Positions 35,083-48,137 of a stretch of 64,000 bases of DNA are shown here, piece by piece. The stretch comes from Escherichia coli. Lineage in GTDB: Bacteria > Pseudomonadota > Gammaproteobacteria > Enterobacterales > Enterobacteriaceae. Numbering within the stretch: position 1 is the first letter of the stretch; each line of letters opens with the position of its first letter. The DNA is taken from the NCBI RefSeq assembly GCF_036507355.1, contig NZ_AP027877.1; one strand, written 5' to 3'. The translations under genes were made by a program, and so were the position numbers. The notes beneath the pieces were generated by a model. That model was not told where the DNA came from. It was given only the letters and a program-made list of their open reading frames with translations, and did no database searches.

Positions 35083-35807
35083 TGATTACCCTGAAAAATG
35101 TTTCAAAATGGTATGGTCACTTTCAGGTGCTGACCGACTGCTCAACCGAAGTGAAAAAAGGCGAAGTGGTGGTGGTTTGCGGCCCGTCTGGTTCCGGCAA
35201 ATCAACGCTGATTAAAACCGTCAACGGCCTCGAACCGGTGCAGCAAGGTGAAATCACCGTCGATGGTATCGTGGTTAACGACAAGAAAACCGATCTGGCA
35301 AAGCTGCGTTCCCGCGTCGGGATGGTATTCCAGCATTTCGAGCTGTTCCCTCATCTGTCGATTATCGAAAACCTGACCCTGGCGCAGGTGAAAGTGCTTA
35401 AACGCGATAAAGCACCCGCTCGTGAAAAAGCATTGAAATTGCTGGAGCGCGTGGGACTTTCCGCACATGCCAATAAATTTCCGGCACAGCTTTCCGGCGG
35501 TCAGCAGCAGCGTGTGGCGATCGCTCGCGCATTGTGTATGGATCCTATTGCCATGCTGTTCGACGAACCGACATCGGCGCTGGATCCGGAGATGATCAAC
35601 GAAGTGCTGGACGTAATGGTCGAACTGGCGAATGAAGGAATGACCATGATGGTGGTGACCCACGAAATGGGCTTTGCCCGTAAAGTGGCGAATCGGGTGA
35701 TCTTTATGGATGAGGGTAAAATTGTCGAAGACTCGCCGAAAGATGCGTTCTTCGATGATCCGAAATCGGACCGCGCAAAAGACTTCCTCGCGAAAATCCT
35801 GCATTAA
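35082..35807 (+). CDS. gltL: Glutamate/aspartate ABC transporter ATP-binding protein GltL (241 aa)
   Basis: ORF 35082..35807; Walker [13 protein letters not shown] signature LSGGQQQR, Walker [12 protein letters not shown]. Confidence 0.96.
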
Positions 35808-35924
35808 TCACTCTGGCGCGCATCCCCAAGTGCGCGCCATCTCACGCTTTATCGTTTCGCCCCTCGTATCTGTTACATCCTGGCGTTACCCTTGCCGCAA
35901 AGAAGCACACAACAAGGAGCAACA

Positions 35925-36860
35925 ATGGCACTGCCAATTCTGTTAGATTGCGACCCAGGTCATGATGACGCTATCGCAATAGTTCTCGCCCTCGCCTCAC
36001 CAGAGCTTGATGTCAAAGCAATTACGTCTTCCGCCGGAAACCAGACACCAGAAAAAACCTTACGCAATGTTCTGCGTATGCTGACCTTGCTTAATCGCAC
36101 CGATATTCCGGTAGCCGGCGGCGCAGTAAAACCGTTAATACGTGAGTTGATTATCGCGGACAATGTGCACGGCGAAAGCGGTCTCGACGGCCCGGCATTA
36201 CCGGAACCGGCGTTCGCACCGCAAAACTGTACGGCCGTAGAGCTAATGGCGAAAACGCTGCGTGAAAGTGCGGAACCTGTCACGATTGTGTCTACCGGAC
36301 CGCAAACTAACGTTGCCTTGCTGCTCAATAGCCATCCGGAACTGCATAGCAAAATTGCCCGTATCGTGATTATGGGTGGCGCTATGGGGCTGGGTAACTG
36401 GACGCCTGCGGCTGAATTTAATATTTACGTTGACCCGGAAGCGGCAGAAATTGTCTTCCAGTCAGGGATCCCGGTGGTGATGGCCGGTCTGGATGTTACT
36501 CACAAAGCACAAATCCACGTTGAAGACACTGAGCGTTTCCGCGCGATTGGCAACCCTGTTTCAACCATTGTTGCCGAACTGCTGGATTTCTTCCTCGAAT
36601 ATCATAAAGACGAAAAATGGGGCTTTGTCGGCGCACCGCTGCATGACCCATGCACCATCGCCTGGCTGTTGAAACCGGAGTTGTTTACCACTGTTGAGCG
36701 CTGGGTTGGCGTGGAAACACAAGGGAAATATACCCAGGGGATGACGGTTGTTGATTATTATTATCTGACTGGCAATAAACCGAATGCCACTGTAATGGTC
36801 GATGTTGATCGTCAGGGCTTTGTTGATTTACTGGCTGATCGTCTGAAATTTTACGCTTAA
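35925..36860 (+). CDS. rihA: Pyrimidine-specific ribonucleoside hydrolase RihA (311 aa)
   Basis: ORF 35892..36860; ATG at 35925 gives [16 protein letters not shown] (nucleoside-hydrolase aspartate cluster). Confidence 0.93.
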
Positions 36861-36943
36861 CACACGTCATTGATTAAGATCACCACGCGTTACCTGGGTG
36901 GTCTTAATCTGTTTATCTCTTTTTCTTTCAAGATATAAATGCA

Positions 36944-38614
36944 ATGGATAATGCAGAACTCGCCATTGGTATCGATCTCGGTACTACCAATAGTTTAATT
37001 GCCGTCTGGAAAGACGGTGCCGCGCAATTAATTCCAAATAAGTTCGGTGAATATTTAACACCATCCATAATTAGCATGGATGAAAATAATCATATTTTAG
37101 TCGGAAAACCGGCTGTATCACGGCGTACTTCGCATCCGGATAAAACGGCAGCGTTATTTAAACGTGCAATGGGCAGTAATACCAACTGGCGGTTAGGCAG
37201 CGACACATTTAACGCGCCAGAACTGTCCTCTTTGGTATTACGCTCATTAAAAGAAGATGCCGAAGAATTTCTGCAACGTCCGATTAAAGATGTGGTGATC
37301 TCTGTTCCGGCTTATTTCAGCGATGAACAACGCAAGCATACCCGTTTAGCAGCGGAGTTAGCCGGTTTAAATGCAGTTCGCCTGATTAATGAGCCAACGG
37401 CAGCTGCGATGGCGTATGGCCTACATACCCAACAAAATACCCGTTCGCTGGTGTTTGATCTCGGTGGCGGCACGTTTGACGTTACGGTGCTTGAGTACGC
37501 CACGCCGGTGATTGAAGTTCACGCCTCCGCTGGCGACAACTTCCTCGGTGGCGAAGATTTTACCCATATGCTGGTCGATGAGGTTTTAAAACGCGCGGAT
37601 GTCGCCAGGACCACGCTTAACGAGAGTGAACTGGCAGCCTTGTATGCCTGTGTGGAAGCGGCAAAATGTAGCAATCAATCGCTAATGCACATTCGCTGGC
37701 AGTACCAGGATGAAACGCGGGAATGCGAATTTTACGAGAACGAACTGGAAGATTTGTGGTTGCCGCTGCTCAATCGCTTGCGAGTGCCGATTGAACAGGC
37801 GTTGCGCGATGCGCGTCTGAAGCCGAGTCAAATCGACAGTCTGGTGCTGGTTGGCGGCGCGTCACAAATGCCGCTGGTGCAGCGAATCGCCGTGCGTCTG
37901 TTTGGCAAATTACCGTATCAAAGTTACGATCCGAGCACCATTGTCGCGCTGGGCGCAGCAATCCAGGCAGCCTGCCGCTTACGCAGTGAAGATATTGAAG
38001 AAGTGATCCTCACTGATATTTGCCCTTACTCGTTGGGCGTTGAGGTTAACCGTCAGGGCGTTTCCGGCATTTTCTCGCCGATTATTGAACGAAACACCAC
38101 TGTGCCCGTGTCGCGTGTAGAAACTTATTCAACCATGCACCCGGAACAGGATTCAATTACGGTTAACGTCTATCAGGGAGAAAACCACAAAGTTAAAAAC
38201 AACATTCTGGTGGAATCCTTCGATGTGCCGTTGAAGAAAACCGGGGCTTATCAGTCGATTGATATTCGCTTTAGTTATGATATCAACGGGTTGCTTGAAG
38301 TTGACGTGCTTCTGGAAGACGGCAGCGTTAAGTCCAGAGTGATTAACCACAGCCCGGTAACATTGAGCGCGCAGCAGATTGAAGAGAGTCGGACGCGGTT
38401 ATCCGCATTGAAAATTTATCCGCGCGATATGCTCATCAACCGCACCTTTAAGGCCAAACTGGAAGAGTTGTGGGCGCGGGCGCTGGGTGACGAGCGAGAA
38501 GAGATTGGCCGGGTGATCACCGATTTTGATTCGGCGTTGCAGTCAAACGATATGGCCCGCGTCGATGAGGTCAGGCGGCGGGCGAGCGATTATTTAGCCA
38601 TTGAGATCCCATAA
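36944..38614 (+). CDS. hscC: Atypical Hsp70-family chaperone HscC (556 aa)
   Basis: ORF 36944..38614; Hsp70 ATPase signatures IGIDLGTTNS and DLGGGTFDV; shorter than DnaK. Confidence 0.95.
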   Translation: MDNAELAIGIDLGTTNSLIAVWKDGAAQLIPNKFGEYLTPSIISMDENNHILVGKPAVSRRTSHPDKTAALFKRAMGSNTNWRLGSDTFNAPELSSLVLRSLKEDAEEFLQRPIKDVVISVPAYFSDEQRKHTRLAAELAGLNAVRLINEPTAAAMAYGLHTQQNTRSLVFDLGGGTFDVTVLEYATPVIEVHASAGDNFLGGEDFTHMLVDEVLKRADVARTTLNESELAALYACVEAAKCSNQSLMHIRWQYQDETRECEFYENELEDLWLPLLNRLRVPIEQALRDARLKPSQIDSLVLVGGASQMPLVQRIAVRLFGKLPYQSYDPSTIVALGAAIQAACRLRSEDIEEVILTDICPYSLGVEVNRQGVSGIFSPIIERNTTVPVSRVETYSTMHPEQDSITVNVYQGENHKVKNNILVESFDVPLKKTGAYQSIDIRFSYDINGLLEVDVLLEDGSVKSRVINHSPVTLSAQQIEESRTRLSALKIYPRDMLINRTFKAKLEELWARALGDEREEIGRVITDFDSALQSNDMARVDEVRRRASDYLAIEIP

Positions 38615-38622
38615 ACACGGCT

Positions 38623-38655
38623 GCCGGATGCGGCGTAAACGCTGCATCTGGCATC
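38623..38655. repeat. REP element
   Basis: gccggatgcggcgtaaacgctgcatctggcatc. Confidence 0.75.
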
Positions 38656-38673
38656 GGCGCAAAAAACACATCG

Positions 38674-40125
38674 TCAACTAAACAACATCGCGATTTTGCC
38701 GAGAGCATAACCTATCACCAGCACCGTTAAGCTGATTTTGATAATGCTGGTAATGCTCTGTGGTTTTTCATCCTCATCATTTTTTTCTTCATGGTTTTCA
38801 GGTGTTGGCTCATCGACATCTTCATCCTCCGGCTCGAGTTTCACTTTCGTCAACAGCATCCGGGTGATAATGGCCTCTAATGGATGAGCATCTCCACCTT
38901 CCAGCCTTGTATTAAGACGGGCCAGCATCTCTTGTTTCGGAAACGCTTCAAGTACTACCTGTTCCGCTACCCGATACAAATCCAGTAACGGTGAATCTTG
39001 CTCTGTCTCGCTACCGACCCTCGATTTCCACCACGCCCATGCTTTGCGTTTGAAGAATAACGACTCAATAAACGATTGACCTAACGGCGATAGTTTTCCG
39101 CTATGTAAAATTTCCGCCCATAACAGACGCGTCCGGGCGCTCTCACCAGGAACATATTTCAACGGTTTACCTTGCGCATCTACCATGCTCCGTGCTTCGA
39201 TAACCATCACTAATAACGCGAAATAATCCGGGCAATGTTGTGCGCTCCACTGCAACAACAAATTATCGGCTTGTGTAGATGGGTAACTTCCCCAGTACGC
39301 GCAGAGATCGGCAAGCAGGCTTTCCCCCTCGCCGCAGTACAAACGTTGTGCACACTGGTAATACCGGGCATCTTCGCTTTCTGGTTCTTCCGTTTGCCAC
39401 TGTTGGGCAACAGGAATGAGTTCCGCCATACCTGTTTGCACCGAGCTGTACCAGCGCAACAGTTTGCGATGCAACTTCGCATCATCAGGAATTAACCACG
39501 GACCTGCCAACGCCAAAAACGCAGTGACATAGTCAGGATGGTAACGACAGCAACGTTCCAGCGCGAAGTAATACTCAACAGTCTGGTTCTGCAACGCAAT
39601 GGGATATTCCAGAAGGCTAAGGAAATCGAAACAATCACCAGCCTGAATGGCCTCAAGAAAAGCCTCCCTTTCTTCCTCATCCATTCCTACGCTGTCATTA
39701 AACGAATGCCAGTTCAAACGCTCTGCCAGCAAAGAAGCACAATTTAATGAAAGATATCGCGCTTCTATAGCGATTGCACACAGCGGCCAGCGTAATTGAT
39801 CGACATCCTCCATGTTCCAGGTATTTAATTGCTGAATAAATTTCTGCCAGGCGGAAGGCTGAAAACGATCACTTTCTGAATCCAGTAATGTCCTGAATGC
39901 ACGAAGTATTTCATGTTCAGCGGCGGCATCTTTTTCTTCATCATCTGCTTCCTCGACAGGATTTACCGCCAGTCGCAGCGCCTCTTCATAGGCCTGGCGT
40001 AATGCTTTAAACCCCTGCGGATCGGTTTCGGGATGACATAACGGTAAGCGAGCAAAATAAGCCTGGCGGATAATGTCTATTTGCGTCGTGCTTTCAATTT
40101 CGAGGATTTGCCAACATGTTTTCAT
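38674..40125 (-). CDS. djlC: J-domain-like co-chaperone DjlC/YbeV (483 aa) with C-terminal hydrophobic tail
   Basis: ORF 38674..40125; N-terminal J-like segment (...[31 protein letters not shown]), acidic linker, C-terminal TM-like stretch ([19 protein letters not shown]); start overlaps ybeU stop (ATGA). Confidence 0.9.
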
Positions 40126-40829
40126 AGGTCGCTCACATCCTTAAGCGTTACCGGGCATTCAGGCTGGACAGTTAATGGTTGCCAGGGAAGCGTGGCATAG
40201 AAACGATCGCTTCCCGCTGCTAGCTCTTCGAACATATGACTCCTGGCGCTATCGTATTTGTACAGGGTTAGCGCCTCGCGTAGCGAAGTGTTGTCTTCGC
40301 ACTGAGAAGATTGCCAGTAGAGACGCCCTAGTGAATAGGCAGAAAAATAGTGCATCCAGCTGTGATAGTAATGGTGAGCTCGTACATAGACGCGCGATTG
40401 CAGCCATAAACTCTCGTCTTCCGTCAGCCACTTGTTGAGCACACCAACCCGTGATAAAAAACCCATCCGCACATAATCCCAGGCTTTGATTCCCCCTTCC
40501 CCACAACACATAGCGGTTTGGGCAACGAACTGGGTATAAATCAACCCTCTCTCCGAGCCACCAGCAATTAATGCTTTCCACTCTTCAGGGGAAGAGCGAT
40601 GCCATGTCAGATATAAGCCAGCTAAATCATTGGCATGACCATCATCAGTCATCTGATAAATAGTCTGAATTAAATCATCACGATTATTTATTCCCCAGGA
40701 TGATGAGAGATCGAATTCTTTTATCCCGGTATACATTTTTGGCGAGTCATGCGCGGGTTTGCAACCCTGATTAAGTATTTCCATGGGCGCAGAAAGCGCA
40801 AAAAGAAGATATTGTTCTTCCTTATTCAT
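40122..40829 (-). CDS. ybeU: DUF1266-family protein YbeU (235 aa)
   Basis: ORF 40122..40829; paralog of YbeR (shared block [20 protein letters not shown]); translationally coupled to djlC. Confidence 0.9.
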
Positions 40830-40930
40830 TTGTTAATAATCCCTTAAGTGCATTAACTGACTACTTTTTTATTATTGATGAGTATAAACTTGACGCTTTC
40901 AAAATAAAAAGAAAATCGAAACATTCACAC

Positions 40931-41485
40931 ATGAATAAAAAATTAATGTATATATTCGCAATTTTTATAGTTGCAGCAATTACCTGTATTAGCCAACCCA
41001 AGAAAACGACGTTGCGTGATAAAGCCATGGTGAATTATGCCTTTGATTATTTAAGCTCACCGGGCAGTCTTCCATTCACCACGGCAGCCACGGAGCTTTC
41101 CGCGATTCATGGTCACTCAACGTCGCAATATCGCCTTGGAGAATTTTATCTTCATGGTAGCGACGGTAAACCACTGGATTATACACAGGCGAGATACTGG
41201 TATGAGCAATCAGCGGAACAGGAAAATCCACGCGCGCAAAGTAAACTGGGGTGGATCTACCTCAAAGGTCTGGGGGTCAAACCCGACACCCGTAAAGCAA
41301 TTCTCTGGTATAAGGAAGCAGCTGAACAAGGGTATGCTCATGCTCAATATACTTTAGGTTTGATCTACAGAAATGGCTCAGGTATTAATGTTAACCATTA
41401 TGAATCTCAAAAATGGTTAAAACTGGCCGCCAAACAACATTACAAAAATGCGGAAAGATTACTTGCCGGGCTTCCCGCACATTAA
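40931..41485 (+). CDS. ybeT: Sel1-repeat (TPR-like) protein YbeT (184 aa) with N-terminal hydrophobic segment
   Basis: ORF 40931..41485; Sel1-like repeats ([42 protein letters not shown]). Confidence 0.88.
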
Positions 41486-41494
41486 CGTCGACTG

Positions 41495-42922
41495 TCACCC
41501 GAACAGATGGAGTATTTTCCCTATCAAACCAGCAAAGATAAAAATATAGAAAATAATTTTAATGATGCCCAGACAGCCTGGCCCACCATCGTCAACGGGC
41601 ATTGGCTGCGGTTGCGGCTCCGGTTCAACAGTTTGCTTCTCGGTAAAATTCGCCGCCTGAATTAATAATCGACGAATAATTAATGCTTCCAGTGGACAAC
41701 GATTTTCTGCATCAAGACGGCTTACGATCGGCATTAATGATTCTTCTGTTGGTTGGCTGGCCTGCACTAATTGTTTGGCAACTAAATATAATGGCCATAA
41801 GGGATGTTCTGTATCACGCGTGAGTGAGATCCGCGGCTTACGTCCTTTGTGCAAAACCATCTCGACCAGTGAACGCCCCAGAGCAGAGAGTTTTTCATCG
41901 CTGAGTATTTCGTATAAATGAAAACGCGTACGGGCGCTGTCGCCGGGGATATAAAGTAGCGGTTTTCCCTGATCGTTAACCAGTTCACGAGCTTCAATCA
42001 TCATCACCACTAACGGGTAATAATCGACCCGATGCTGACGGCACCATTGCAATATTAAAGCATCCGCCTGGGTGGAGGGATACTCGCGCCAGTAGTCACA
42101 AAGTTCTGCCAGCAAGCTTTCGCCTTCTCCACAATAGACGCGTTGTGCGTATTCATAATAACGCGCATCTTCATTATCAGGTTCAGCTTCCCGCCACGAC
42201 CGGGCGTAATCCAGGAGTTCGGGAATTCCCAGGCGACCTGCGCTATACCAGCGGAGTAAATTTCTGTGCAGTTTTGCATCATCGGGGATAATCACTGCGC
42301 GATGTTGCGCTAAATACAATGTCAGCCATTCTGGATGCGATGACCAAATCCGAGCGAACATTTGGTAAAAATCGATGGTGTCATTTTGCACGGCAACGGG
42401 CAGATGCAGGATGGTCTGGAAGTTAAAAACATTCCCCTTCGCAATGGCATATAAAAAGGATTCCAGTTCTTCTTCGTCTATTTCCCCGACGTTTTCTTCC
42501 TGCAACCACCGCAATCTTTCTGCTAATAACACCACGCACTCGAAGGATAAATGGGCAGTGTTCATGGCTATTGTGCACAGCGACCAGCGTAATTCATCAA
42601 TCTCTTCCATCGAGCAATAATTTAATTGCTGAATGAATCGCTGCCAGGCGGAGGGCAGAAAACGTTCGCTATCAGAGGCAAGTAACGCACGAAAGGCGAG
42701 CAGAATTTCATGTTCTGCTACCTCATATTCTTCTGGTTGCCAAACAGATTTAGCAGGCGACTGCGCAATCCGTAGCGCCTCCTCATACGCCTGACGAAGT
42801 TGTTTAAAACCCTGCGGATCGGTTTCTGGATGAAAGGACGGTAACAGCGCCAGATAAGCGCGGCGGATAATATCGACGTCAGTCGTTTCCTCTATGTTGA
42901 GGATCTTCCAGCAATTTTTCAT
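41495..42922 (-). CDS. djlB: J-domain-like co-chaperone DjlB/YbeS (475 aa) with C-terminal hydrophobic tail
   Basis: ORF 41495..42922; paralog of DjlC with the same N-terminal HPETDPQGF segment and a C-terminal hydrophobic stretch ([22 protein letters not shown]). Confidence 0.9.
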
Positions 42923-43626
42923 AGGTCGCTCATATCCTTAAGCGTTTCCGGGCATGTGGGGTAGTCAGCCAGTGGTTGCCAGGGTAAGGTCGCGTAATAT
43001 GCATCGTCACTGGCAAATAATTGATAAAACATATCATTGCCGGAATCGTCGTATTCTTTACGCGCTAAGAATTCACGTAATAAAGGCAGATTATCATCTT
43101 CGGGAGACTGCCAATATTGCCGACCAAAGGTATAACCGGCAAAGTATTGCCGCCAGTTACTATAATAACGTAGAGCCCGTAGATGAATACGCGACTGGAT
43201 CCATAGACTTTCTTCTTCACTCAACCAGTTATTAAGTACGCCCATTCGACTTAAAAAACCCATCCGGACATAATCCCATGCTTTAATTCCTCCCTCACCA
43301 CAGCATTCGGCTGTGCTGGCGACAAATTGCGCATAAGCCTGACCTTGCTCATTTAATTCAGCAAGATAGTCACGCCATTCACATGGAGAATAACGAAACC
43401 AGCGGTGATAAAACCCTGCCAACCGAGCGGCATGACCGTTATCGATCATTCGGTGAATTGTGCGCAGCAGGTCATCACGGTCATCAATTCCCCAGGAGGA
43501 AGAAAGGTCAAAAAAGCATGTACCTAAATACATTTTGGGGGATGAATGCGAAGGTAAACAGCATTCATTGCGTATTTCCATCGGAGTGGAAAGTGCAAAC
43601 AATATTTTTTGCGACTCCATGTCCAT
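42919..43626 (-). CDS. ybeR: DUF1266-family protein YbeR (235 aa)
   Basis: ORF 42919..43626; paralog of YbeU; stop overlaps the djlB start (ATGA). Confidence 0.9.
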
Positions 43627-43640
43627 ATAATTTATCCTTA

Positions 43641-43659
43641 AACATTCATTTAATGAATG
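43641..43659. promoter_or_regulatory. Perfect 19-bp palindrome in the ybeR/ybeQ divergent promoter region (candidate operator)
   Basis: ACATTCATT-T-AATGAATGT: 9-bp arms, perfect dyad, 15 bp upstream of the ybeR start. Confidence 0.4.
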
Positions 43660-43789
43660 TAAACTACATTAGGAGGCTCATTTATTTATACTTTTCTGAC
43701 ACAACATAATACGCATAAAATAAGACTTACGCAAAAACGGAACACATAAAAATATAATATGTTTTATCTGCAACCATAAGGAAATGATA

Positions 43790-44767
43790 ATGATTTTTAC
43801 GTCAAGTTGCTGCGATAATTTGTCAATAGATGAGATTATCGAACGTGCTGAACAAGGCGATAGTGAGGCTCAATATATTGTTGGGTTTTATTATAATCGC
43901 GATAGCGCAATTGACTCTCCGGACGACGAAAAGGCCTTTTACTGGCTGAAGCTGGCCGCTGAGCAAGGTCATTGTGAAGCACAGTATTCCTTAGGGCAAA
44001 AGTATACCGAGGATAAAAGCCGTCATAAAGATAATGAGCAAGCCATCTTCTGGCTGAAAAAAGCTGCCCTACAAGGCCATACTTTCGCTTCCAACGCCCT
44101 TGGCTGGATACTGGATCGTGGAGAAGACCCCAACTATAAAGAAGCGGTTGCCTGGTATCAGATAGCCGCGGAGAGCGGAATGTCTTATGCGCAAAATAAT
44201 CTTGGGTGGATGTACAGAAATGGCAACGGAGTCGCACAAGACTATACGCTGGCATTTTTCTGGTACAAACAAGCTGCATTACAAGGCCATAGTGACGCGC
44301 AAAACAATCTGGCCGATCTTTATGAAGACGGAAAAGGCGTTGCTCAAAACGAGACACTCGCCGCATTCTGGTATTTGAAAAGCGCACAGCAGGGTAATCG
44401 GCATGCTCAGTTTCAAATTGCATGGGATTATAACGCTGGCGAAGGGGTGGACCAGGACTATAAGCAAGCGATGTACTGGTATCTGAAGGCTGCCGCTCAG
44501 GGGAGCGTCGGCGCTTACGTCAACATCGGTTATATGTATAAACACGGACAAGGCGTTGAGAAAGATTATCAGGCTGCCTTTGAATGGTTTACGAAAGCCG
44601 CTGAATGCAATGACGCCACTGCCTGGTATAACCTGGCCATTATGTATCACTACGGAGAAGGAAGACCTGTCGATCTCCGACAGGCTCTCGACCTGTATCG
44701 TAAAGTTCAGTCATCCGGAACCAGAGATGTCAGTCAGGAAATTCGTGAGACTGAAGATTTACTGTAG
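43790..44767 (+). CDS. ybeQ: Sel1-repeat protein YbeQ (325 aa; ORF is open from ATG 43784)
   Basis: ORF 43784..44767; at least seven Sel1-like repeats (AQYxLGxxYxxGxGV pattern). Confidence 0.88.
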   Translation: MIFTSSCCDNLSIDEIIERAEQGDSEAQYIVGFYYNRDSAIDSPDDEKAFYWLKLAAEQGHCEAQYSLGQKYTEDKSRHKDNEQAIFWLKKAALQGHTFASNALGWILDRGEDPNYKEAVAWYQIAAESGMSYAQNNLGWMYRNGNGVAQDYTLAFFWYKQAALQGHSDAQNNLADLYEDGKGVAQNETLAAFWYLKSAQQGNRHAQFQIAWDYNAGEGVDQDYKQAMYWYLKAAAQGSVGAYVNIGYMYKHGQGVEKDYQAAFEWFTKAAECNDATAWYNLAIMYHYGEGRPVDLRQALDLYRKVQSSGTRDVSQEIRETEDLL

Positions 44768-44836
44768 AGATAAAAACAAGGGCCGGGGAATTTCATTCGG
44801 CCCATATTCTCTTTATTGCTGTGCGAAATCAGACTA

Positions 44837-45319
44837 TTACGGCTCAAACGGGCGTCTCTGGAACTGGTCATGACCACATTTCGGGCATAGCGTCAGCACT
44901 TCCGGTGTGTAGATCGGGAGATGGAAGTGACATTTCTCGCAGACCAGATTTCCCAGCCCGACCACTTCTCCGCTGTGATAAACCCCATGATGATTGAGGT
45001 CCTGGAAAACTTCGCGCCATTCAAGCTGCGTTTTATCGGTGATGTCTGCCAGCTCCTGCCACAAGCTTTCTTTAATCACCCGCATAAAGACGCTGTCAGA
45101 TTCTTCTTTCAGGCTCTCTTCATAGCTCATGGCGAACTCTTCCAGGTCACGTCTGACAGCTCGCGTCAGCTCATCGACCTCGGTTCGCGTTAACTCCCCT
45201 GTTTTTATTACGCGCTCGCGCGCCTGTTCCACCAGTGCGTCGATATCACGTTCGCCATTGCGCAGGCGTTCGCTCAGTGACGCGACCAGTTCACGGTAAT
45301 ATTGAGCAACCTTGTTCAT
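44837..45319 (-). CDS. ybeL: DUF1451 zinc-ribbon protein YbeL (160 aa)
   Basis: ORF 44837..45319; C-terminal CxxC...CxxC (CEKCHF...CPKCGH). Confidence 0.88.
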   Translation of the reverse strand: MNKVAQYYRELVASLSERLRNGERDIDALVEQARERVIKTGELTRTEVDELTRAVRRDLEEFAMSYEESLKEESDSVFMRVIKESLWQELADITDKTQLEWREVFQDLNHHGVYHSGEVVGLGNLVCEKCHFHLPIYTPEVLTLCPKCGHDQFQRRPFEP

Positions 45320-45554
45320 CGTTTCATCTCCCGGGTCGTTAACTGACTATAATAATAGACGTTCTTTGTTCCTTGCTTTGCTAATACGCCCACAAACTCT
45401 GTAAATTAATGTATGAATAATCCGGGCATCATTTCAACGTCGAGTGCGCGAAAGGCTGTTTTGACGCGGACGTTTGGGCTATGCTATGCGGATCTGAAAA
45501 ACCACCTCTAACGCTACTTTTGTAGCCGTAATGAAAACAGGACCACTGGCTGCC

Positions 45555-48137
45555 ATGCAAGAGCAATACCGCCCGGAAGAGATAGAATCCAAAGTACAGC
45601 TTCATTGGGATGAGAAGCGCACATTTGAAGTAACCGAAGACGAGAGCAAAGAGAAGTATTACTGCCTGTCTATGCTTCCCTATCCTTCTGGTCGACTACA
45701 CATGGGCCACGTACGTAACTACACCATCGGTGACGTGATCGCCCGCTACCAGCGTATGCTGGGCAAAAACGTCCTGCAGCCGATCGGCTGGGACGCCTTT
45801 GGTCTGCCTGCGGAAGGCGCGGCGGTGAAAAACAACACCGCACCGGCACCGTGGACGTACGACAACATCGCGTATATGAAAAACCAGCTCAAAATGCTGG
45901 GCTTTGGTTATGACTGGAGCCGCGAGCTGGCAACCTGTACGCCGGAATACTACCGTTGGGAACAGAAATTCTTCACCGAGCTGTATAAAAAAGGCCTGGT
46001 ATATAAAAAGACTTCTGCGGTCAACTGGTGCCCGAACGACCAGACCGTACTAGCGAACGAACAAGTTATCGACGGCTGCTGCTGGCGCTGCGATACCAAA
46101 GTTGAACGTAAAGAGATCCCGCAGTGGTTTATCAAAATCACCGCTTACGCTGACGAGCTGCTCAACGATCTGGATAAACTGGATCACTGGCCAGACACCG
46201 TTAAAACCATGCAGCGTAACTGGATCGGTCGTTCCGAAGGCGTGGAGATCACCTTCAACGTTAACGACTATGACAACACGCTGACCGTTTACACTACCCG
46301 CCCGGACACCTTTATGGGTTGTACCTACCTGGCGGTAGCTGCGGGTCATCCGCTGGCGCAGAAAGCGGCGGAAAATAATCCTGAACTGGCGGCCTTTATT
46401 GACGAATGCCGTAACACCAAAGTTGCCGAAGCTGAAATGGCGACGATGGAGAAAAAAGGCGTCGATACTGGCTTTAAAGCGGTTCACCCATTAACGGGCG
46501 AAGAAATTCCCGTTTGGGCAGCAAACTTCGTATTGATGGAGTACGGCACGGGCGCAGTTATGGCGGTTCCGGGGCACGACCAGCGCGACTACGAGTTTGC
46601 CTCTAAATACGGCCTGAACATCAAACCGGTTATCCTGGCAGCTGACGGCTCTGAGCCAGATCTTTCTCAGCAAGCCCTGACTGAAAAAGGCGTGCTGTTC
46701 AACTCTGGCGAGTTCAACGGTCTTGACCATGAAGCGGCCTTCAACGCCATCGCCGATAAACTGACTGCGATGGGCGTTGGCGAGCGTAAAGTGAACTACC
46801 GCCTGCGCGACTGGGGTGTTTCTCGTCAGCGTTACTGGGGCGCGCCGATTCCGATGGTGACGCTGGAAGACGGTACCGTAATGCCGACCCCGGACGACCA
46901 GCTGCCGGTGATCCTGCCGGAAGATGTGGTGATGGACGGCATTACCAGCCCGATTAAAGCAGATCCGGAGTGGGCAAAAACTACCGTTAACGGTATGCCA
47001 GCGCTGCGTGAAACCGACACTTTCGACACCTTTATGGAGTCCTCCTGGTACTATGCGCGCTACACTTGCCCAGAGTACAAAGAAGGTATGCTGGATTCCG
47101 AAGCGGCTAACTACTGGCTGCCGGTGGATATCTACATTGGTGGTATTGAACACGCCATTATGCACCTGCTCTACTTCCGCTTCTTCCACAAACTGATGCG
47201 TGATGCAGGCATGGTGAACTCTGACGAACCAGCGAAACAGTTGCTGTGTCAGGGTATGGTGCTGGCAGATGCCTTCTACTATGTTGGCGAAAACGGCGAA
47301 CGTAACTGGGTTTCCCCGGTTGATGCTATCGTTGAACGTGACGAGAAAGGCCGTATCGTGAAAGCGAAAGATGCGGCAGGCCATGAACTGGTTTATACCG
47401 GCATGAGCAAAATGTCCAAGTCGAAGAACAACGGTATCGACCCGCAGGTGATGGTTGAACGTTACGGCGCGGACACCGTTCGTCTGTTTATGATGTTTGC
47501 TTCTCCGGCTGATATGACTCTCGAATGGCAGGAATCCGGCGTGGAAGGGGCTAACCGCTTCCTGAAACGTGTCTGGAAACTGGTTTACGAGCACACAGCA
47601 AAAGGTGATGTTGCGGCACTGAACGTTGATGCGCTGACTGAAGATCAGAAAGCGCTGCGTCGCGATGTGCATAAAACGATCGCTAAAGTGACCGATGATA
47701 TCGGCCGTCGTCAGACCTTCAACACCGCAATTGCGGCGATTATGGAGCTGATGAACAAACTGGCGAAAGCACCGACCGATGGCGAGCAGGATCGCGCTCT
47801 GATGCAGGAAGCACTGCTGGCCGTTGTCCGTATGCTTAACCCGTTCACCCCGCACATTTGCTTCACGCTGTGGCAGGAACTGAAAGGCGAAGGCGATATC
47901 GACAACGCGCCGTGGCCGGTTGCTGACGAAAAAGCGATGGTGGAAGACTCCACGCTGGTCGTGGTGCAGGTTAACGGTAAAGTCCGTGCCAAAATCACCG
48001 TTCCGGTGGACGCAACGGAAGAACAGGTTCGCGAACGTGCTGGCCAGGAACATCTGGTAGCAAAATATCTTGATGGCGTTACTGTACGTAAAGTGATTTA
48101 CGTACCAGGTAAACTCCTCAATCTGGTCGTTGGCTAA
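45555..48137 (+). CDS. leuS: Leucyl-tRNA synthetase (860 aa)
   Basis: ORF 45531..48137; ATG at 45555 gives [15 protein letters not shown]...; class I HMGH and KMSKS motifs. Confidence 0.97.

Follow-up and report, generated by a model that had tools for sequence, protein, structure and literature searches.

Bacterial Hsp70s fall into three types, of which HscC is one. What it does in the cell has been an open question since 2002, and reviews offer no more than sensitivity to Cd2+ and ultraviolet (UV) light and guessed membrane clients. In the system described for Escherichia coli (Kluck et al. 2002; PMC8215388), this GrpE-free Hsp70 works with two tail-anchored J-proteins, DjlC and DjlB, which carry an HPE motif. 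The review PMC8215388, which draws on Kluck 2002 and Peschke 2018, states that HscC acts independently of GrpE, that DjlC stimulates its ATPase while DnaJ, CbpA and HscB do not, and that DjlC is tail-anchored in the inner membrane, its insertion having been shown (Peschke 2018). According to the same review, loss of hscC, or of djlB plus djlC, leads to Cd2+ sensitivity, and loss of hscC also leads to UV sensitivity. Stimulation of the HscC ATPase by DjlB is assumed here. The published system has two components. We analyzed the locus of this very system, located at positions 36944–44767 of a stretch of 64,000 nucleotides (nt) of the E. coli contig NZ_AP027877.1 (assembly GCF_036507355.1), which is referred to below as the window. 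Next to hscC, the locus contains two cassettes, ybeU–djlC and ybeR–djlB, in each of which a gene for a DUF1266 protein is paired with a J-protein gene. The analysis revealed the DUF1266 protein as an invariant third component of the system, and a long J-TPR-DUF805 protein of about 900 amino acids (aa) as the ancestral form of its J-protein.

To evaluate the conservation of the locus, 1.84 billion representative proteins were searched without a profile, which gave only 365 DUF1266 relatives. The YbeU-like ones were aligned and used as the seed of a genome scan covering one genome for each of 100,044 species, and 78 loci were found. Open reading frames (ORFs) were called in the neighborhood of these loci, and the seven E. 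coli proteins were searched against them using phmmer. It was revealed that about 70 of the 78 loci contain a DUF1266 gene followed by a DjlB/C-like J-protein gene and then by an HscC-like Hsp70 gene. This triad was found in 11–12 genera, namely Escherichia, Klebsiella, Rahnella, Pragia, Erwinia, Yersinia, Pectobacterium, Brenneria, Gilliamella, Pseudomonas and Marinobacter; a truncated contig from Bowmanella contained no more than the DUF1266 gene and the first part of the gene for the J-protein. The Hsp70s of the other triads scored 590–750 bits against E. coli HscC, and in most genera their genes were convergent; Marinobacter had them co-directional. When ORFs in flanks of up to 10 kb were clustered all against all, just the three triad families proved common across genera, with no fourth gene conserved together with the triad in these flanks; the remaining cross-genus "families" were antisense shadow ORFs. 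The chaperone-centred module that a preliminary description of this DNA had proposed was borne out. That description had also asked in advance whether the DUF1266/J-protein pair is linked to Hsp70 outside Escherichia; the question was put to the genomes, and the linkage stands.

Distant standalone DUF1266 proteins (22–29% identity), followed up through metagenome and NCBI look-ups, were again encoded in triads. Two of these distant loci had the order Hsp70, J-protein, DUF1266, and another contained two tandem DUF1266–J cassettes with a single Hsp70 gene. Overall, the triad occurs in three gene orders. The triad was found on Erwinia persicina plasmids of 130–165 kb as well as on chromosomes. 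Most E. coli matches labeled as plasmids are records of 0.7–4.9 Mb and are probably chromosomal. Association with Hsp70 is a property of one DUF1266 clade, which belongs to Gammaproteobacteria wherever the host of a locus was named. In one locus (L082:1222-2962), a gene for an RF-1-domain protein (179 aa) adjoins a gene for a 403-aa protein without a Pfam match, about 3 kb from the triad, with an IS110 transposase gene on the other side. We take this pair to resemble a ribosome-rescue pair of the prfH–rtcB type, a resemblance which would place the triad of that locus in an accessory stress-gene region.

The Hsp70 gene of the window, hscC (36944–38614, plus strand), encodes a protein of 556 aa of the specialized HscC type, presumed to be the shared ATPase motor of both cassettes. 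Its scores against the NCBIfam models of DnaK (385 against a cut-off of 648) and HscA (379.5 bits against a cut-off of 708.55) fall well under both cut-offs, so this protein is neither DnaK nor HscA, and no isc genes were found in the region of the window. HscC variants of 506–529 aa, which are 91–95% identical to the 556-aa form, occur in some genomes of E. coli and E. marmotae, indicating allelic length variation of the gene.

Both cassettes are located on the minus strand. The first consists of ybeU (40122–40829; 235 aa), a DUF1266 gene whose product is the proposed partner subunit of DjlC, and djlC (38674–40125; 483 aa), encoding a class C J-protein. The second consists of their paralogues ybeR (42919–43626; 235 aa) and djlB (41495–42922; 475 aa). 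The paralogy of the cassettes, already recognized in the preliminary description, far exceeds what chance would give: YbeU aligns with YbeR at 60% identity and without gaps (E 5e-106), the two share the identical 20-mer pointed out there, DjlC and DjlB are 53% identical (E 8e-159), and an independent repeat search recovered the duplication with a cassette period of 2797 nt. At both junctions the stop codon of the DUF1266 gene overlaps the ATG of the J-protein gene within an ATGA (40122–40125 for ybeU/djlC and 42919–42922 for ybeR/djlB, both minus strand), which is a putative site of translational coupling. Both junctions read GACCTATGAAAA, and the 40-mers quoted for them earlier are indeed identical at 38 of 40 positions.

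This likeness of the junctions had been read as duplication with selection for translational coupling, a reading that did not hold. Nucleotide identity between the cassettes is 58% overall, and in 60-nt windows it reaches 0.80 at the junction against 0.78 in the DUF1266 core and the J domain. The junction is no more conserved than the best coding windows and hence gives no special signal of selection after the duplication. Gene conversion was considered as a source of the near-identical junction and was rejected, since 0.80 equals the identity of other conserved coding windows. Among 80 cassettes from 12 genera, 73 have the ATGA overlap; in the remaining seven, the two genes overlap by 1 or 10 nt. 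The coupling is therefore ancestral to the cassette and predates the duplication in E. coli. In a neighbor-joining tree, YbeU and YbeR form separate clades, each with members from Escherichia, Salmonella and Citrobacter, which places the duplication before the split of these genera; the orthologous pairs YbeU/DjlC and YbeR/DjlB are both retained in all three. The DUF1266–J cassette was duplicated at least twice independently, a single HscC being kept. The distant locus with tandem DUF1266–Djl cassettes beside one Hsp70 gene, mentioned above, belongs to assembly GCA_019703835.1 (L089:2409-11215). In the tree, the DUF1266 proteins of its two cassettes group with each other, which makes this duplication independent of that in E. 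coli. The first J-protein paralogue of that locus (873 aa) has no recognizable J domain.

DjlC combines a J domain (aa 1–55) with a TPR-like stretch of helices, an acidic linker and, at the C-terminus, a tail anchor. Its match to the Pfam DnaJ model was weak (E 0.024), and a long homologue matched with E at most 1e-5. In nearly all of the approximately 80 cassette J-proteins, DjlC and DjlB included, the canonical HPD motif is replaced by HPE, which has been discussed as a tolerated variant of HPD (PMC13254874). According to the translations, this motif occupies aa 31–33 in both proteins (40027–40035, minus strand, for DjlC; 42824–42832 for DjlB). Both proteins also end in a hydrophobic segment in translation, corresponding in DjlC to about aa 458–483 (38677–38754, minus strand), and DjlB has the same arrangement of HPE J domain, helical region and tail anchor. 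In the AlphaFold2 model, DjlC was all-helical, with a weak resemblance to TPR superhelices.

Outside the Escherichia–Klebsiella group, the J-protein is 880–920 aa long and includes four parts: the HPE J domain, helices homologous to residues 60–350 of DjlC, about 400 more helical residues with TPR-type and PF27158 (DjlB_C_2nd) signatures, and a multi-span membrane domain of the DUF805 type (E 1.8e-7 for the Djl protein of P. fluorescens). The E. coli proteins DjlB and DjlC are shortened derivatives of this J-TPR-DUF805 protein in which a tail anchor replaces DUF805. The triad J-protein is thus always membrane-anchored, through DUF805 in the long ancestral form and, in the form shortened in enterobacteria, through a single tail anchor, and the retention of membrane attachment despite the change of anchor type argues that location matters. 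In two Pseudomonas spp. loci (L032:9807-11585 and L070:10687-12381), J-proteins of about 565–590 aa were found instead of about 900 aa; a large part of the helical region is missing from them, a loss separate from the shortening in enterobacteria.

YbeU matched Pfam family PF06889 (DUF1266) with E 9.1e-45 over model positions 2–175 of 175. In the DUF1266 proteins of the triad type, residues W45, H65, D118, R121, R127, E139, W158, Y161, G168, W172 and W216 are invariant or nearly so. The presumed equivalents of the histidine, the aspartate, the first arginine and the glutamate, together with the aromatic residues, are also conserved in separately aligned DUF1266 domains of quite different proteins. 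DUF1266 proteins outside the triad carry Cu_amine_oxidN1 (9/43), SLH (4/43), TPR, LRR or peptidase domains, and other DUF1266 genes are located beside an ankyrin protein gene or in tandem arrays with no Hsp70 nearby. The conservation of the same residues in such unrelated contexts allows us to assume that DUF1266 has an intrinsic binding or catalytic site. The domain is all-alpha with conserved charged residues and matched no solved fold: a PDB sequence search with DjlC and YbeU returned nothing below E 0.2, Foldseek against AFDB50 returned other DUF1266 proteins alone, and Foldseek against the PDB with a fused YbeU–DjlC model returned nothing below E 0.02 and only generic TPR superhelices.

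In order to evaluate a possible contact between the two cassette proteins, a fusion alignment was built from 24 paired rows, each from the same locus, in which the DUF1266 protein was joined through a (G4S)5 linker to the N-terminal 440–470 residues of the J-protein. The AlphaFold2 model of YbeU–linker–DjlC(1–440) obtained with this paired alignment had a mean predicted local distance difference test score (pLDDT) of 83.8 and a predicted template modeling score (pTM) of 0.78, with low confidence confined to the linker, the acidic stretch past the J domain and two short loops. For a chain of 700 residues (d0 = 9.1 Å), an unplaced YbeU of 235 residues would keep the pTM from rising much over 0.6; the value of 0.78 thus corresponds to a typical predicted error of about 5–6 Å between the YbeU and DjlC parts. 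The model therefore argues, if indirectly, for a direct complex of YbeU and DjlC. The predicted contact agrees with the synthesis in equal amounts expected from the gene overlap, with the duplication of cognate pairs and with the TPR-like middle region of the J-protein.

Taken as a whole, these characteristics could be explained by a membrane-anchored Hsp70 machine whose functional unit is HscC together with DjlC or DjlB as the HPE J-protein and YbeU or YbeR as the DUF1266 protein, an assumption to which we give about an even chance. In such a machine, each DUF1266 protein and its cognate J-protein would be produced in equal amounts, and the former would bind the cytoplasmic TPR-like domain of the latter, forming a targeting platform on the membrane's inner face. 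ATP-bound HscC would then be recruited by the HPE J domain, which would trigger hydrolysis, and HscC would clamp a polypeptide presented by the DUF1266–J platform. DUF1266 would act as a specificity or regulatory subunit, and its conserved polar site (H65, D118, R121, R127 and E139) may bind a ligand. Each cassette would add one specificity to the shared HscC motor, so that two cassettes would provide two specificities. A membrane-tethered Hsp70 machine had been put forward in the preliminary description as well; that idea is not new, and both it and a membrane function were already put forward in PMC8215388. More tentatively, and with doubt on our side, DUF1266 could represent a new class of Hsp70-system component, an obligate partner of membrane J-proteins whose fold has no solved relative and which bears a conserved site for ligand binding or catalysis. 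The triad would then be a self-contained and horizontally mobile unit with an output set by DUF1266, conceivably the remodeling of membrane proteins under stress or conflict and, at the extreme, an Hsp70-driven defence or abortive response.

Available data on expression allow us to say when such a machine might operate. HscC, DjlB and DjlC are undetectable in the exponential phase (PMC8215388). A DUF1266 gene of E. coli strain 042, presumably the ybeU or ybeR locus, was up 308-fold in an hns mutant at 25 °C (PMC7582179). The genes ybeT and ybeU–djlC (hscD) belong to the regulons of SlyA and H-NS, SlyA being the activator (PMC5797941), the level of the DjlC protein depends on Crl, a cofactor of sigma-S (PMC6469107), and genomic SELEX (systematic evolution of ligands by exponential enrichment) located sites of the RpoD holoenzyme and H-NS in the ybeQ/ybeR spacer (PMC3946193). 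These data suggest that the block is silent in growing laboratory cultures, which the undetectable proteins of the exponential phase fit, and that it is expressed in stationary-phase, low-temperature or de-silencing conditions. Regulation thus points to a role in the stationary phase or under stress and not to housekeeping. In E. coli, relief of H-NS silencing by SlyA would lead to expression of the block.

The distribution of the block within the species was estimated in 5,426 complete E. coli genomes at a segment coverage of 80% or more. The gene hscC was present in 4,376 genomes (81%), djlC–ybeU in 4,268, djlB–ybeR in 3,705, and the whole 8.9-kb query (36500–45400) in 3,688. About 19% of the complete genomes are without the entire block, and this, along with the silencing by H-NS (PMC7582179, PMC5797941, PMC3946193), confirms the earlier description of the region as accessory DNA. 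In the genomes without the block, rihA is located about 45 bp from ybeL with nothing between them. In about 13% of E. coli genomes, djlB–ybeR and most of ybeQ are deleted and hscC–djlC–ybeU–ybeT is kept, and an IS1-mediated loss was found in one genome. In Salmonella and Citrobacter, the block occupies the same chromosomal position as in E. coli and contains tandem cassettes and ybeQ, with ybeT absent. In a Salmonella enterica locus (L090:11951-13189), hscC and rihA are separated by an extra ORF of 412 aa without a Pfam match, which the E. coli window lacks.

Several points weigh against the three-component machine as proposed. The link of DUF1266 to DjlB/DjlC or HscC is a computational one, and the contact with the J-protein was read indirectly, from the pTM of an artificial single-chain fusion. 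The survey was seeded from DUF1266 and was thus blind to HscC-type Hsp70s without a DUF1266 partner, and a search for HscC homologues returned proteins of Escherichia and Salmonella alone. In Escherichia sp. MOD1-EC7003 (L004:3648-5986), a third DjlB/C-like gene is located between ybeL and ybeQ without an adjoining DUF1266 gene. Two ORFs make up this gene, one of 93 aa for the J domain (FHPENDPDGF) and one of 344 aa with a hydrophobic tail end, and the gene that follows encodes a signal-peptide protein of 321 aa. The split gene represents either a third cassette in decay or a J-protein gene that escaped from its partner. DUF1266 also occurs without any Hsp70 in Firmicutes-type proteins, which points to an activity of its own beyond the model. 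Finally, the data fit DUF1266 as an adaptor or regulator and DUF1266 as a client alike. As a client, it would be a dedicated substrate comparable to IscU, held by the helical domain of the J-protein and remodeled by HscC, which would turn its enzymatic or binding activity on or off at the membrane. A client, J-protein and Hsp70 encoded together have a precedent in the isc operon (PMC8215388), the predicted DUF1266–Djl contact would fit equally well, and the conserved H/D/R/E/W residues in proteins unrelated to Hsp70 suggest an activity that could be the regulated output. J-proteins act catalytically, however, and it would be unusual for a client to be synthesized 1:1 with its J-protein, as the conserved ATGA overlap implies, for which reason an adaptor or regulator is favored; peptide-library data also suggest a broad client range of HscC (PMC8215388). 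The client model remains a strong rival of the adaptor/regulator, and we consider it fairly unlikely. A third function would be that of a nucleotide-exchange factor for HscC, making the module equivalent to the DnaK–DnaJ–GrpE triad. All-helical exchange factors such as BAG and HspBP1 are found in eukaryotes, the module has three components, and DUF1266 is all-alpha with conserved charges; the absence of a GrpE-binding signature in HscC (PMC8215388) would also agree with this function. However, DUF1266 is coupled to and duplicated with the J-protein and not the Hsp70, and HscC is expected to release nucleotide rapidly unaided (PMC8215388), so that no exchange factor should be needed. DUF1266 is, moreover, fused to the cell-wall-associated SLH and to Cu_amine_oxidN1 domains where no Hsp70 occurs, and it gave no structural match to a known exchange factor. 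Of all the explanations considered, this one appears the least probable.

The preliminary description had also assigned the two Sel1-repeat genes of the block to the machine and had suggested a defence function. Both genes are divergent from a cassette across an AT-rich spacer, as described earlier: ybeT (40931–41485, plus strand; 184 aa) across the putative promoter spacer ybeU/ybeT (40830–40930), and ybeQ (43784–44767, plus strand; 327 aa) across the spacer ybeR/ybeQ (43627–43783). The low GC content of these spacers was confirmed in the sequence (0.37 at 40500–40999 and 0.36 at 43500–43999, against about 0.50 around them). YbeQ contains eight Sel1 repeats (Pfam PF08238, tandem, 36 residues; E at most 4e-4) and YbeT contains three, and the two proteins are alike in these repeats alone. 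In favor of their being integral partners or clients of the machine, they are under H-NS/SlyA control in common with the cassettes, which is the only documented link between them and is exerted at the common divergent promoters, and ybeQ is syntenic in Escherichia, Salmonella and Citrobacter, the lineages whose J-protein lost its C-terminal helical half. In these three genera only, ybeQ was found beside the triad; neither Sel1 gene accompanies it in Klebsiella, Rahnella, Pragia, Erwinia, Yersinia, Pectobacterium, Brenneria, Gilliamella, Pseudomonas or Marinobacter, and ybeT, an insertion between the cassettes, is limited to Escherichia, being missing even from the syntenic loci of Salmonella and Citrobacter and from every other triad locus. 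The translation of YbeT begins with a hydrophobic segment of the export or anchor type that is absent from the cytoplasmic-type YbeQ, so the two are probably in different compartments and YbeT probably shares none with HscC. In addition, the deletion found in about 13% of E. coli genomes removed ybeQ with djlB–ybeR and spared hscC–djlC–ybeU–ybeT. A role of the Sel1 proteins as partners or clients is therefore improbable; their genes are lineage-specific neighbors and later local additions, not core parts. An origin of ybeQ by gene fission, from the lost C-terminal half of the long J-protein, was rejected, as Sel1 queries never matched the long J-proteins, and a mention of ybeQ in a Rickettsia paper concerned an unrelated, mis-named protein. 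The remaining possibility, an anti-phage or other conflict system with an Hsp70 motor, would agree with the patchy gammaproteobacterial distribution without flanks conserved between genera, with the plasmid-borne triads of Erwinia persicina, with variability in E. coli and silencing by H-NS as for foreign DNA, and with the weak JetD_C match of a gene about 3 kb away from one metagenomic triad. PADLOC, however, gave no matches for HscC, DjlC, DjlB, YbeU or YbeR, and those of YbeT and YbeQ were marginal (E 6e-4 to 2e-3), covering the first ~50 positions of PtuA with no stretch passing alone. Among 50,697 phage records, only two unannotated, host-like fragments of 1.5–2.6 kb were found, and 2.9 million viral contigs contained no copies. 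E. coli strains without the block have an empty rihA–ybeL junction with no alternative cargo, the fixed position in Escherichia, Salmonella and Citrobacter and the presence in 81% of E. coli genomes are unlike islands with fast turnover, and the neighbors in six other loci are mostly metabolic genes. With all these results against it, the defence function can be regarded as very improbable.

All seven ORFs of the preliminary description were found at their positions within 36944–44767, as were its flanks, gltIJKL–rihA on one side and ybeL–leuS–lptE–holA on the other. Near-identical E. coli chromosomes (RefSeq annotation; best match of 99.3% identity) give identical gene names, the product of hscC being named "molecular chaperone HscC". 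A scan for promoter and terminator consensus sequences found fewer sites than in shuffled sequences, Rfam revealed no RNA family across 35800–45600, and NCBIfam contained no family for DjlC, DjlB, YbeU or YbeR. Older records label YbeU fragments as "putative tRNA ligase", and one UniProt entry joins YbeU to DjlC as a 627-aa "Hsc56 co-chaperone"; both are apparently annotation artefacts. A gene 98% identical to E. coli ybeU at the end of a contig labeled "Paenibacillus sp." (L008:10001-10387) and the entry A0A077ZGN2 of the AlphaFold Database ("Trichuris trichiura DnaJC13", 94% identical to YbeU) look like E. coli contamination of other assemblies.

The results recast the two-component HscC system as a three-component one and name DUF1266 as its most likely specificity determinant, since each cassette-type J-protein of HscC has a translationally coupled DUF1266 protein of its own, the two duplicating as a unit while the Hsp70 stays single. 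The searched literature contained no role for DUF1266, the term being found in one paper's expression table only, and no functional paper on ybeU or ybeR. Removing the Sel1 genes from the core saves effort, and Pseudomonas or Erwinia may be better models than E. coli, given the truncated DjlB and DjlC of the latter.

In its working, the triad is closest to HscA–HscB–IscU, CbpA–CbpM and Pam18–Pam16–mtHsp70, and it is a member of none of these systems. Like HscA–HscB–IscU, it combines a specialized Hsp70 with a class C J-protein that has a C-terminal targeting domain and with a co-encoded third protein bound to the J-protein. There is, however, no homology beyond the Hsp70 and J domains, HscB is soluble, the client of that system is abundant and not translationally coupled, and DUF1266 is not an Fe–S scaffold, unlike IscU. 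The J-protein CbpA likewise shares its transcript with a small partner of its own, by which it is bound and modulated (PMC8215388). That partner, CbpM, is encoded downstream, acts on the DnaK system and is inhibitory through masking of the J domain; it has no relationship to DUF1266, of whose being inhibitory there is no sign here. E. coli also directs an Hsp70 to its inner membrane through DjlA, again a class C J-protein with a membrane anchor, but DjlA has this anchor at the N-terminus, a C-terminal HPD J domain, DnaK as its Hsp70 and no DUF1266-like partner. In Pam18(Tim14)–Pam16–mtHsp70 and Sec63–BiP, a J-protein anchored in the membrane is stably bound to an obligate partner and brings a dedicated pool of Hsp70 to that membrane. 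These are eukaryotic organelle translocation motors, whereas the bacterial triad has no associated translocon, and Pam16 is J-like, which DUF1266 is not. Compared with all of these, what is new here is the obligate DUF1266 third component of unsolved fold and the longer ancestral architecture of the J-protein.

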